Assembly: GCA_009693835.1 (NCBI GenBank)
Contig: SHWM01000001.1
Location: forward strand, 9,571-73,570
Source of the DNA: Alphaproteobacteria bacterium
GTDB taxonomy: Bacteria; Pseudomonadota; Alphaproteobacteria; UBA11222
Length of the DNA: 64,000 nt
Direction of reading: 5' to 3'
Positions 12,794-14,704 of the stretch are shown piece after piece. The notes beneath the pieces are model-generated. The model did not search any database and was not told where the DNA came from. It worked only from the letters and a program-made list of their open reading frames with translations. The stretch's first letter is position 1. Each line of letters opens with the position of its first letter. The translations under genes and the position numbers were made by a program.

Positions 12794-13741
12794 TTGAATG
12801 AGAAACAAATGAACCAGCCTGCACGACAGCAAAAAGCTCCGCACGTCTATCGCAACTTCGCGTTTGACAGCCGCAGGTGGGACAAGTTCACGCCCCGTCA
12901 GGGCGATATCTTCATCTGCACCCCTTCCAAATGCGGCACCACCTGGACTCAGATGATCTGTGCGCTGCTGATCTTTCAGAAGCCAAAACTGGAGCGCCCG
13001 CTAAGCGATTATTCGCCTTGGCTTGATATGCAGATCGCGCCTGTCGGGGAGGTTATTGAACGGCTGGAGGCGCAAACCCATCGCCGCTTCATCAAGACGC
13101 ATACGCCGTTTGATGGAATGCCCTATTACCCGGACGTCACCTATCTGTGCGTGGGACGCGACGCGCGCGACGCCTTCATTTCGATGGACAGTCAGGGCCC
13201 GAATGCAAACCCGGAAATTTTCCGCCGTATGATGAGCTATATGCAGGAGGGCGACCCGCGCCCATCGCGCCCCGTGAAAGATTTACGCGAACGCTTCCGC
13301 CTCTGGATCACGGCGCCCGGCACCCCGGAGGCCAGCAACGACCCGCAAATGATGCCGGCGCCGCCTTTCATTAATAGTTACTGGCAATACCGCCATCTGC
13401 CCAACATTCATTTGTTTCATTACAATGATATGAAACGCGATCTGGCAGGGGAGATGCGGCGTGTTGCCGGCGCGCTGGGCATAGAGGTGGCGGAGCCTGT
13501 ATGGCCGGGCCTGGTTGAAGCGGCGCAATTTGAAAGCATGAAAGAGAATTCAGCCATGCTGGCGCCGGACGCCAAAACCGGCATATGGCGCGATCCGGCC
13601 GCCTTTTTCAGCAAGGGCGTGACCGGCCAGTGGCACGATGTTCTGGGACCGGAGGAATTGTCTTTGTATGAAAATACCATGCGCGAGCGGTTCGACCCGG
13701 AAATGGTCAGATGGGTTGAAATGGGCCGCGCTGCGGGTTAG
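12794..13741 (+). CDS. PAPS-dependent sulfotransferase-domain protein (paralog 1)
   Basis: The 5'-PSB motif PSKCGTTW and the 3'-PB-like RDARDAFIS motif are present. The product is a ~315-aa cytosolic-type sulfotransferase. Confidence 0.8.
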   Translation: MNEKQMNQPARQQKAPHVYRNFAFDSRRWDKFTPRQGDIFICTPSKCGTTWTQMICALLIFQKPKLERPLSDYSPWLDMQIAPVGEVIERLEAQTHRRFIKTHTPFDGMPYYPDVTYLCVGRDARDAFISMDSQGPNANPEIFRRMMSYMQEGDPRPSRPVKDLRERFRLWITAPGTPEASNDPQMMPAPPFINSYWQYRHLPNIHLFHYNDMKRDLAGEMRRVAGALGIEVAEPVWPGLVEAAQFESMKENSAMLAPDAKTGIWRDPAAFFSKGVTGQWHDVLGPEELSLYENTMRERFDPEMVRWVEMGRAAG

Positions 13742-13777
13742 GTGTAACCTAAGTTAATTCATTTTGAGGGATCAGGA

Positions 13778-14704
13778 ATGCAACAGGCAACGCGTACGCA
13801 AAAACCTGCGGCCATTTACAAAAACCACCTTACGGACAGCACGCGCTGGGAGAATTTCAAATCCCGGGACGGGGATGTGTTTGTGTGCACGCCAGCCAAG
13901 TGCGGCACCACCTGGGCACAGATGATCTGTGCCCTGCTGATTTTTCAGAAACCGGAGTTTGAGCGCCCGCTCAGTGATTACACACCCTGGCTGGACATGT
14001 TGCTGTACCCGATCGACAAGGTTCTGGCGAAGCTGGAAGCGCAAACGCATCGCCGTTTCATTAAAACCCATACGCCGTTTGATGGTCTGCCCTATTATGA
14101 AAACACCACCTACCTGTGTGTGGGGCGCGACCCCCGCGACGCGTTCCTTTCCATGGGCAATCACAGCAGAAACATCAGTCCTGAATTTCTGAAGAAGTTC
14201 ATGGCGAACGCCAAACCAGAAGAAAAGTCAGGTGAGCCGGAAATGAAGCTTACAGTTGGCGAACGCTTTCTGAAGGAAATCACCGCGCCGGCCATCGCCG
14301 GGTCCACCGACAATCCCGCTGGCGTCCTGCCCTATGTAAAAAGCTTCTGGGATTACCGTCACCTGCCGAATCTGCATTTCATGCATTACAGCGACATGAA
14401 GCGCGATCTGGGCGGTGAGATGCGGCGCGTCGCAGCGGCGCTGGGCATCGAGGTGGCCGAAAAGCTGTGGCCGGTCCTGATACGTGCGGCCGAGTTTGAA
14501 AATATGAAAAAGAATTCCGATAGGCTGGCGCCCGATGCGGAAACCGGAATCTGGAAAGAGCCGGGTAATTTTTTCAATAAAGGCGAAAACGGGCAGTGGC
14601 GCGAAATATTCAGCGCCGAGGAACTGGCCGGATACGAAAAAGTAATGCGCGAGCGGCTTGATCCAGAACTTGCAAACTGGATTGAGAACGGCCGTTTGGG
14701 ATAA
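13778..14704 (+). CDS. PAPS-dependent sulfotransferase-domain protein (paralog 2)
   Basis: PAKCGTTW and RDPRDAFLS motifs are present. It is about 60-65% identical to the upstream paralog along its full length, indicating a tandem duplication. Confidence 0.8.
   Translation: MQQATRTQKPAAIYKNHLTDSTRWENFKSRDGDVFVCTPAKCGTTWAQMICALLIFQKPEFERPLSDYTPWLDMLLYPIDKVLAKLEAQTHRRFIKTHTPFDGLPYYENTTYLCVGRDPRDAFLSMGNHSRNISPEFLKKFMANAKPEEKSGEPEMKLTVGERFLKEITAPAIAGSTDNPAGVLPYVKSFWDYRHLPNLHFMHYSDMKRDLGGEMRRVAAALGIEVAEKLWPVLIRAAEFENMKKNSDRLAPDAETGIWKEPGNFFNKGENGQWREIFSAEELAGYEKVMRERLDPELANWIENGRLG

Follow-up and report, generated by a model that had tools for sequence, protein, structure and literature searches.

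In published phylogenies of PF00685 sulfotransferases, the fungal enzymes FgSULT1 (Fusarium graminearum) and HwSULT (Hortaea werneckii) fall into one 'Hortaea/bacteria' cluster together with Rv1373 of Mycobacterium tuberculosis and many proteobacterial proteins, and among the bacterial proteins of that cluster only Rv1373 has been characterised (PMC11677658, PMC7690957). In vitro, Rv1373 transfers sulfate to ceramide and trehalose glycolipids (PMC13141999, PMC11677658); which substrate it uses natively is a matter of continuing debate (PMC13141999). The two fungal enzymes sulfate phenolics (PMC11677658, PMC7690957). Proteobacterial Sulfotransfer_1 entries number in the thousands (PMC13449962).

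The present analysis concerns a tandem pair of such genes, ST1 and ST2, in a window of 64,000 nucleotides, the whole stretch of alphaproteobacterial DNA that was analysed, in which an earlier note had drawn attention to them. Taken together, sequence comparison, structural modelling and analogy with described enzymes argue with good confidence that both encode soluble, cytoplasmic, Rv1373-like PAPS-dependent O-sulfotransferases, old paralogs which probably use small hydrophobic acceptors, most likely distinct ones.

Gene pair, family assignment and predicted fold

The two adjacent plus-strand genes that had been placed next to valS are readily found as open reading frames: ST1 (12809..13741, +; 310 aa; PF00685 E 3e-38) and ST2 (13778..14704, +; 308 aa; PF00685 E 8e-40), both Sulfotransfer_1 proteins. 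They match MSP41773.1 and MSP41774.1 exactly, and are thus already present in NCBI, annotated as sulfotransferase-domain proteins. The pair had been given the span 12794-14704, the end of which holds; its start is an upstream TTG at 12794 that would yield a protein of 315 aa, and gene calls in NCBI, ENA and Logan (310 aa) agree with the N-termini of homologs in favouring the ATG at 12809 as the probable start of ST1. Neither reading frame contains a frameshift or an internal stop. The genes are separated by a spacer of 36 nt (13742..13777, +), in which a Shine-Dalgarno-like element, GAGGGA, precedes the ST2 ATG by 6 nt, and a terminator scan found no terminator-like site in this spacer, so that ST1 and ST2 are probably transcribed together. 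The only promoter-like match, at 12684-12711, is not above chance expectation. Downstream, valS (14718-17564, minus strand) is convergent, its stop lying 13 nt from that of ST2 at 14704.

Sequence and model place both proteins, with high confidence, among the PAPS-dependent O-sulfotransferases of the Sulfotransfer_1 (cytosolic SULT) superfamily. With 132.1 bits for ST1 and 137.2 bits for ST2 against a cutoff of 22, and with positions 1-251 of the 255 in the Pfam HMM covered, the similarity to PF00685 is far above chance, and this is the only Pfam family that matches either protein at E<=0.01; no NCBIfam match was obtained for ST1 or ST2. The eukaryote-like, PAPS-type character proposed in the earlier note is upheld: the family is not a non-PAPS one, the predicted fold is that of a SULT, and the catalytic Lys, His and Ser are intact.

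The 5'-PSB and 3'-PB motifs reported before were recovered in both proteins, and the invariance of their residues was judged in a 28-sequence alignment of clade members. The 5'-phosphosulfate-binding (PSB) loop, with Lys41, reads TPSKCGTTW in ST1 (12920..12946, +) and, from the reading frame and the same alignment, TPAKCGTTW in ST2 (13889..13915, +); K41, G43, T44, T45 and W46 are invariant, and the ST1 loop has PKSGTTW of SULT1C2 as its aligned counterpart. The segment RRFIKTHTP, with Lys96 and the putative catalytic base His98, lies at 13082..13108 (+) in ST1 and, by the ST1-ST2 and clade alignments, at 14051..14077 (+) in ST2; R93, K96, T97, H98, T99 and P100 are invariant, and the ST1 copy corresponds in alignment to KTHLP of the cytosolic SULTs (KTHL in SULT1C2). 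The 3'-phosphate-binding (3'-PB) motif GRDxRDAFxS is common to both, with the ST1 version GRDARDAFIS (13154..13183, +; Arg117, Ser125) aligning with RNAKDCMVS of SULT1C2 and with R117, D118, R120, D121, F123 and S125 invariant. The C-terminal nucleotide-binding loop, the counterpart of FMRKGxxGDW in SULTs, reads FFSKGVTGQW in ST1 (13604..13633, +; F266, F267, G270, Q274 and W275 invariant) and FFNKGENGQW in ST2, its Lys, Gly and Trp being retained; the equivalent of SULT Arg257 is Ser in ST1, Asn in ST2 and Arg in Rv1373, and its replacement in the pair counts as a point against the assignment.

At the structural level, the AF2 model of ST1 (pLDDT 89.7, pTM 0.90) confidently predicts the SULT alpha/beta fold, and its best PDB fold matches in Foldseek are SULT1E1, SULT1D1 and SULT2B1b with PAP or PAPS (TM 0.68-0.75, probability 1.00). 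When PDB was searched with the clade profile, all matches were cytosolic SULTs (E about 1e-26) apart from a weak one to Teg14 (E 2e-4). Neither a signal peptide nor a hydrophobic segment (maximum Kyte-Doolittle score 1.0-1.15) was found in ST1 or ST2. PAPS-independent aryl-sulfate sulfotransferases (ASST) are periplasmic, carry a family domain of their own and work through a sulfo-His in a ping-pong mechanism; membership in this class was ruled out by the lack of an ASST Pfam match, the SULT-type fold and the lack of a signal peptide or hydrophobic segment. BvASST was discarded as a comparison on account of its different fold and PAPS independence, and the JGI label 'aryl sulfotransferase' most likely denotes the PAPS-dependent enzyme class.

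By extension from the family, the PSB loop (Lys41), Arg117/Ser125 and the K269-G270 loop would hold PAPS, and His98 would deprotonate the acceptor hydroxyl, whose in-line attack on the sulfuryl group would then yield PAP and the sulfate ester.

Spread of the clade and age of the duplication

Enzymes of this kind had been called sporadic in bacteria, a description that does not fit the Rv1373-like clade, which is present in at least 599 species-level genomes; more than 6,500 of 8,000 scored candidates matched it, and it comprises 395 clusters at 50% identity with E<=1e-30. Within the window, pairwise protein alignment gives an identity of 57% over 311 aa between ST1 and ST2 (E 4e-140), slightly lower than the 60-65% first estimated. 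Third codon positions agree at only 0.45-0.75 and no identical run exceeds 17 nt, which marks the copies as old and not homogenised; on these same values, gene conversion or a recent duplication within the window was rejected.

The phylogenetic pattern is of the same kind. In the tree, ST1-type and ST2-type proteins form sister clades with several orthologs in each, and each type is conserved across several genomes at 64-73% identity. The znuCB...valS locus of the relatives L082, L083 and L084 also carries a tandem pair, ST2-type orthologs occupy the same locus in L002-L004, L082 and L084, and every related genome that shows the gene upstream of valS has an ST2-type body there; the ST1-type is missing from L002-L004. 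In L087-L089, a near-conspecific population represented by three independent assemblies, the pair has collapsed to a single gene, the hybrid P0009, which arose by recombination between ST1 and ST2. Assembly collapse as the source of this hybrid was dismissed in view of its clean crossover, the at most 22 identical nt shared by the paralogs and the independence of the three assemblies. In single-copy relatives and in the natural hybrid, the variable segment described below is always ST2-type.

Judged from these sequence relationships, the duplication is old and common to related genomes, and the tandem pair is neither a local novelty nor a recent local copy. The ST2-type is the copy kept at the locus throughout the lineage, and the ST1-type is accessory, having been lost or fused in some relatives.

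Acceptor, PAPS supply and rival readings

The divergence between the paralogs is concentrated in one region. Identity is 10-45% in residues ~121-200 (13169..13408, +, in ST1), where ST1-type and ST2-type proteins differ most, as against 75-90% in the PAPS motifs; of nine positions fixed differently between the two clades, six lie within 127-183, and the lowest pLDDT of the ST1 model, 63, occurs at residues 171-180. By analogy with SULT structures, this variable segment would belong to the acceptor pocket and probably sets acceptor specificity. With the differences concentrated here and the cofactor-binding and catalytic core conserved, different acceptors or different positions are the most likely explanation, and it appears fairly likely that ST1 and ST2 act on distinct acceptors. 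The earlier proposal of diverged copies with distinct substrates thus stands as regards divergence, and the clustering of differences fits its second part. As to the nature of the acceptor, a small molecule or lipid seems somewhat favoured over a macromolecule; given the glycolipids sulfated by Rv1373 in vitro and the phenolics sulfated by FgSULT1 and HwSULT, it would most likely be a small hydrophobic hydroxylated molecule, e.g., a phenolic, lipid or glycolipid alcohol.

Genomic context offers little further guidance. The neighbours of the pair in the window are znuC, znuB, valS, popZ and tolC, and their annotation bears out the remark that no acceptor-biosynthesis genes adjoin it. Neighbour clustering over 81 loci, with ORF calling noisy in high-GC actinomycetes, revealed no conserved neighbour that would betray the acceptor, and the commonest ones, namely SDR (14), LLM oxidoreductase (9), P450 (7) and enoyl-CoA hydratase (7), were set aside as too generic to serve as a substrate clue. 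A sulfatase regex over 86 loci gave noise only, and the upstream regions of the sulfotransferase genes show no overall conservation. In L005 and L007, a lineage-specific cluster combines clade sulfotransferases with a hydroxylase and an organic-anion transporter.

The genes for CysH (33052-33780, minus strand), a CbiX-like chelatase (60957-61745) and CobA/CysG-C (61684-62550) are present in the window as previously listed; the conclusion drawn from them, that the PAPS supply is present, does not hold. CysH is a consumer of APS or PAPS, not a maker, and the one in the window carries CCxxRKxxPL and SxGCxxCT, the cysteine motifs of APS reductases, on the basis of which it would be of the APS-reductase type; its NCBIfam typing is ambiguous, the APS-specific and PAPS-specific models both falling below cutoff. 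No cysD, cysN, cysC or cysQ signature (ATP sulfurylase, APS kinase, CysQ) was found in the window, and no APS kinase, CysD, CysN or CysQ motif within 8 kb of clade members in 86 loci. PAPS would come from ATP sulfurylase and APS kinase encoded outside the window. In M. tuberculosis, likewise, CysH is an APS reductase and PAPS is used by sulfotransferases only.

Several other readings of the pair deserve weighing. The proximity of znuB, whose stop lies 33 nt from the ST1 ATG in a gap without a terminator-like site, makes read-through transcription from znuB into ST1 likely, and the order znuC-znuB-ST is kept in relatives; a functional membership in the zinc-uptake operon znuCB, with Zur regulation and a role in metal homeostasis, is nevertheless scarcely credible. 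In relatives, unrelated inserts (LpxR; PhdYeFM and PIN) stand between znuB and ST1, the gap widens to 170-340 nt in L002 and L003, other family members are not found beside znu genes, and no Zur box was identified, the block conserved upstream of znuC resembling two divergent -10 elements. No metal role is known for SULT-fold enzymes. The absence of the ST1-type from L002-L004 and the collapse of the pair to a hybrid suggest that ST1 is dispensable in some genomes, so that one copy might be redundant or decaying, a plain dosage duplicate without separate function; this is quite improbable in view of the retention of the invariant catalytic and cofactor residues in both copies, the conservation of each paralog type and the nine differently fixed positions described above, and the intact reading frames.

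A role in the envelope, with a sugar hydroxyl on lipid A/core or on a membrane glycolipid as the target of one or both enzymes, is unlikely, although it can draw on the glycolipid activity of Rv1373, on L082, where a gene for the lipid A deacylase LpxR immediately precedes ST1 and a glycosyltransferase lies beyond tolC, on GmhB (heptose bisphosphate phosphatase, 20065-20613) in the window, and on two further ORFs next to the GmhB-like gene of L003. The LpxR insertion, however, is confined to one lineage, and L084 has a toxin-antitoxin pair at the same position, which makes the site look like an insertion hotspot rather than a functional cluster. Moreover, valS, popZ and tolC lie between the pair and gmhB, the proteins are predicted to be soluble and without a membrane anchor, and fungal members of the cluster failed to sulfate trehalose or oligosaccharides (PMC11677658). 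Very improbable, finally, is leaving-group activation, in which the ester would exist only briefly before elimination or cyclisation and would not be the stable product, as with retinol dehydratase, LGS1 or the sulfotransferase domain of CurM: sequence and fold searches rank retinol dehydratase with their best matches and also return the strigolactone enzyme LGS1 (22ga), but both score no higher than ordinary SULTs, a thioesterase or PKS partner is absent nearby, and the nearest characterised relatives yield stable sulfate esters (PMC11677658).

The preferred reading thus remains that of two Rv1373-like O-sulfotransferases with probably distinct, small hydrophobic acceptors. A bolder version, in which the ST2-type enzyme, encoded at a housekeeping locus of a groundwater-associated alphaproteobacterial lineage, and the accessory ST1 would make a new sulfated lipid or signalling metabolite of Gram-negative bacteria, perhaps by acting at two positions or on two related acceptors, is speculative and rather doubtful. 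If it were true, PAPS would be made solely for sulfation, because assimilation runs through APS, and the ST1/ST2 hybrid would constitute a ready-made domain swap for locating specificity determinants. The pair alone adds little, the family being already known as common in Proteobacteria and Actinobacteria; its value lies in providing a way into an orphan family, since Rv1373-like SULTs occur in hundreds of bacterial species and only Rv1373 has been assayed. The paralog pair, the natural hybrid and the L005/L007 cluster could together help to map acceptor specificity and to find new sulfated bacterial metabolites.

Comparison with known sulfotransferases

NodH, Stf0 and RaxST, invoked earlier as the reference cases, and BtSULT share with ST1 and ST2 a bacterial origin and the predicted dependence on PAPS, but belong to other families: no Stf0, NodH or RaxST chain occurs among the PDB sequence matches of ST1 and ST2, and BtSULT is a Sulfotransfer_3 member (PMC13449962). 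The actinomycete glycopeptide-antibiotic sulfotransferases StaL, Teg12 and Teg14 are likewise bacterial and PAPS-dependent, with a Sulfotransfer_1-type fold; they sit in antibiotic biosynthetic clusters, which ST1 and ST2 do not, and are very distant, as the E value of Teg14 indicates. Closer relatives might possibly be found in AdpST (alkylresorcinol di-sulfation) and MbnS (methanobactin threonine sulfation); none of the Methylocystis clade loci examined lies in an mbn operon.

Eukaryotic cytosolic SULTs (SULT1E1, SULT1C2, SULT1B1, SULT1D1, SULT2B1b) provide the best PDB matches in both sequence and fold, and share the fold and the catalytic and PAPS-binding motifs with ST1 and ST2, whereas sequence identity is 18-23%, below the ~40% within-family level. 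The segment after the 3'-PB helix and the Arg257 position also differ, and the SULT dimerisation motif KxxxTVxxxE is absent, the corresponding stretch reading HDVLGPEELS in ST1 and REIFSAEELA in ST2. [quoted passage not shown]

By sequence, the nearest characterised relative is the M. tuberculosis glycolipid sulfotransferase Rv1373 (Stf2, UniProt P9WGB9), which, compared through its verified sequence (P0241), is in full-length alignment 38% identical to ST1 and 34% to ST2 over ~310 aa (E 5e-72 and 4e-70, as against 3e-16 for the best PDB SULT), an identity of 34-38% that is too low for its substrate to be transferred to the pair. Rv1373 shares its operon with a desaturase-like gene and with the type III PKS Pks18 (PMC13141999); the pair in the window has znuCB on one side, valS on the other and no PKS nearby, and the type III PKS/desaturase linkage (rv1371-1373) is a mycobacterial operon feature and not cluster-defining. 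The variable segment is longer in Rv1373, and its PSB loop reads KSGLTW as against KCGTTW in ST1 and ST2. Common to all three proteins are the PSB loop itself, the QxHRRFIKTHTPLDG block, the GRDPRD...S motif and the FFxxGxxGxW loop, as well as a similar size (326 aa in Rv1373), solubility and the lack of the KTVE dimer motif, and in both M. tuberculosis and the source organism CysH would be of the APS-reductase type, with PAPS made for sulfation only.

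The gene pair and its enzyme class

The two adjacent plus-strand ORFs beside valS, with the motifs ascribed to them in the earlier note, were confirmed in the sequence. ST1 extends from 12794 (TTG, the opening of the maximal ORF) or 12809 (ATG) to 13741, and ST2 from 13778 to 14704 (308 aa). The ATG start of ST1, which gives 310 aa, is favoured by homolog N-termini (MNQP.R..K) as well as by ENA, Logan and NCBI gene calls. The proteins share 57% identity over 311 residues (E 4e-140), slightly below the 60-65% first estimated; both carry GRDxRDAFxS, and their PSB motifs read TPSKCGTTW in ST1 and TPAKCGTTW in ST2. 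NCBI already holds them as MSP41773.1 and MSP41774.1, 'sulfotransferase domain-containing protein [Alphaproteobacteria bacterium]'.

By sequence and predicted structure, ST1 and ST2 appear to be genuine and intact PAPS-type sulfotransferases, paralogous to each other and belonging to a bacterial clade that is Rv1373-like and widespread. Pfam Sulfotransfer_1 (PF00685) matches over the full domain, with 132 bits for ST1 and 137 for ST2 (cutoff 22), and no NCBIfam model gives either protein a name. When 28 clade members are aligned, every canonical residue of cytosolic sulfotransferases (SULTs) is invariant: the PSB loop keeps Lys41, KTHTP keeps Lys96 and His98, the 3'-phosphate motif keeps Arg117 and Ser125, and the C-terminal loop keeps Gly270. 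Lys269, present in both proteins, varies over the clade and is Arg in Rv1373; the sole departure from a canonical SULT is the Arg257 equivalent, which ST1 replaces with Ser and ST2 with Asn. The confident AlphaFold2 model of ST1 (pLDDT 89.7, pTM 0.90) finds its best PDB fold neighbours in estrogen, phenol and cholesterol sulfotransferases from crystals containing PAP or PAPS (TM 0.68-0.75, ~20% identity). Searches of PDB sequences, both single-query and profile, led to retinol dehydratase alongside eukaryotic cytosolic SULTs, with E values as low as 1e-26; bacterial Teg14 was marginal (2e-4), and no chain named Stf0, NodH or RaxST was among the matches. The animal-SULT dimer motif KxxxTVxxxE is missing from both proteins, and neither contains a hydrophobic segment, so they should be soluble and cytoplasmic. 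The proposed enzyme class thus holds on family match, modelled fold and canonical residues, and the check for a non-PAPS HMM family or a lost catalytic Lys/His returned PF00685 with Lys41 and His98 kept.

Locus context and history of the pair

ST1 begins 33 nt past znuB, across a gap without a terminator-like site, and ST2 follows after a further 36 nt, preceded by a good Shine-Dalgarno sequence; transcriptional read-through from znuCB is likely. Downstream, valS is convergent to ST2, with 13 nt between their stops. The GC contents of ST1 (0.58) and ST2 (0.545) lie near the window mean (0.579), so nothing suggests a foreign island. In relatives, the junction between znuB and ST1 is a hotspot for insertions (L082:6911-7948, L084:7346-8019), occupied by an LpxR lipid A deacylase gene in one and, in another, by a PhdYeFM/PIN toxin-antitoxin pair in which the PIN gene and the beginning of ST1 overlap. 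Because these insertions are unrelated, and because neither a znu association nor any other conserved neighbour gene was seen across the sulfotransferase family in the neighbourhoods examined, the znuCB-ST linkage is treated as positional.

Several flanking features were also recorded. Two adjacent F420-dependent LLM-class oxidoreductases (8969-11107, minus; TIGR03559 and TIGR03617 types, both above cutoff) keep their synteny with znuCB at every related locus; it is unusual for an alphaproteobacterium to use F420. Between the divergent LLM and znuC genes lies a strongly conserved block, CATAATAC...TATTATGGCATTGCAG (11108-11174), also present in L002, L003, L082, L084 and L086, which may represent two divergent -10 elements or an operator; no Zur box was recognised in the block in the window or in these five loci. 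The valS-tolC interval encodes a DUF2497 protein matching PopZ, the polar organising protein, above cutoff (17719-18339, minus). A P-type cation ATPase occupies three consecutive ORFs of 218, 402 and 226 aa (5770-8327, minus); its ortholog is one gene of ~905 aa in L082, L084 and L086, and the split recurs in ENA contigs; the gene has either decayed to a pseudogene or been interrupted by frameshifts of the assembly.

Neighbour-joining analysis places ST1 and ST2 in separate subclades that are sisters, and both subclades include several orthologs from other metagenomes. The tandem of both types occupies the same locus in L082, L083 and L084, in the shared order LLM-LLM / znuC-znuB ... ST1 ST2 / valS-popZ-tolC, and L002-L004 carry there a single gene with an ST2-type body. 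At third codon positions the window copies show an identity of just 0.45-0.75, and the longest stretch of nucleotides they have in common is 17 nt, which points to an old duplication whose copies are not undergoing homogenisation.

A lone sulfotransferase gene, P0009, replaces the tandem pair of L084:8001-9925 in three independent assemblies (L087:6001-6957, also L088 and L089), from a near-conspecific groundwater population. It reads as a clean ST1/ST2 recombinant with a single crossover: nt 2-289 agree with the L084 ST1 gene at 113 of 114 informative sites and nt 312-954 with the ST2 gene at 198 of 198, the crossover falls at the EAQTHRRF codons immediately before the catalytic His, and the locus flanks are 96-98% identical to L084. 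Assembly collapse is an unlikely origin, since the paralogs have no more than 22 identical nucleotides in common. Natural recombination being preferred, the pair can evidently collapse through unequal exchange. The variable segment is of ST2 type in every single-copy and hybrid form, which marks ST2 as the function that is kept and ST1 as an accessory.

Divergence and acceptor specificity

Between the window paralogs, identity is 75-90% in the blocks for PAPS binding and catalysis (residues 41-60, 81-120 and 201-220), compared with 10-45% at residues 121-200, and six of the nine positions fixed differently between the ST1 and ST2 clades fall at 127-183. The corresponding loops of cytosolic SULTs contribute to the acceptor pocket, so it is reasonable to infer, as the earlier note had proposed, that the two enzymes differ in acceptor or positional specificity. 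A small hydrophobic hydroxylated compound or lipid is the favoured acceptor; the chief alternative is an envelope glycolipid.

Distribution, PAPS supply and known systems

The enzymes had been described as sporadic in bacteria; the clade instead occurs in at least 599 genomes, scanned at one genome per species. A word-indexed search gave >6,500 significant matches among 8,000 scored candidates, and an exhaustive representative search gave 395 clusters (50% identity) at E<=1e-30 and 3,934 at E<=1e-3. Among the matches listed, clade members come from Alpha- and Gammaproteobacteria, Actinomycetota, Myxococcota, Chloroflexi, Opitutales and Chthonomonadales, and a 2026 survey counted 3,359 proteobacterial and 1,931 actinobacterial Sulfotransfer_1 entries (PMC13449962).

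A second, non-syntenic pair of family members (L007:5294-13464, L005:5279-14653) lies in a cluster with the order MBL-fold hydrolase, ST, ST, SBF (bile acid:Na+ symporter family) transporter, MBL-fold hydrolase, and 2Fe-2S plus molybdopterin IorAB-like hydroxylase, which suggests that a small molecule is hydroxylated, sulfated and exported. Within the window, the region of lowest GC (0.50-0.52; 54610-56471, plus) contains an AAA_15/AAA_21 (AbiEii-like) ATPase split between two ORFs that overlap, with a 166-aa ORF lacking annotation behind them; this region may represent the decayed remains of a defence or mobile island. A TPP riboswitch (36315-36416, plus) marks the start of the thiC ORF (36342-38303), and one tRNA gene lies at 32907-32990 (minus).

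PAPS supply had been read from the presence of CysH (33052-33780, minus), a reading that fails here: this enzyme consumes activated sulfate and does not make it. CCNFRKTIPL, SIGCMSCT and ECGIH are present in its sequence; NCBIfam scores alone are ambiguous for its typing. Its two cysteine pairs are a hallmark of Fe-S APS reductases, and since CCNFRKTIPL and SIGCMSCT correspond to these motifs, sulfate assimilation in the source organism probably bypasses PAPS. No signature of APS kinase, ATP sulfurylase or CysQ was found in the 64-kb window, nor any such signature within 8 kb of any of 86 loci examined; the organism would need to encode PAPS synthesis in another part of its genome. In M. tuberculosis, CysH is likewise APS-dependent and PAPS serves sulfotransferases only, a parallel to the APS-type CysH found here.

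NodH, Stf0 and RaxST, initially proposed as comparators, belong to other families, as does BtSULT (Sulfotransfer_3; PMC13449962). In published phylogenies one PF00685 cluster unites many Proteobacteria, Cyanobacteria, Myxococcota and Actinomycetes with the fungal phenolic sulfotransferases FgSULT1 and HwSULT, and M. tuberculosis Rv1373 (Stf2) is its only characterised bacterial member (PMC7690957, PMC11677658). The native substrate of Rv1373, whose gene shares an operon with the type III PKS Pks18, is still debated (PMC13141999); several actinomycete clade members bear the UniRef or NCBI name 'glycolipid sulfotransferase'. Its sequence, verified by exact look-up as 'Glycolipid sulfotransferase Rv1373', aligns end to end with ST1 at 38% identity (E 5e-72) and matches ST2 at 34% (E 4e-70), roughly twice the identity of either protein to any eukaryotic SULT, which makes Rv1373 the nearest characterised relative of the pair.
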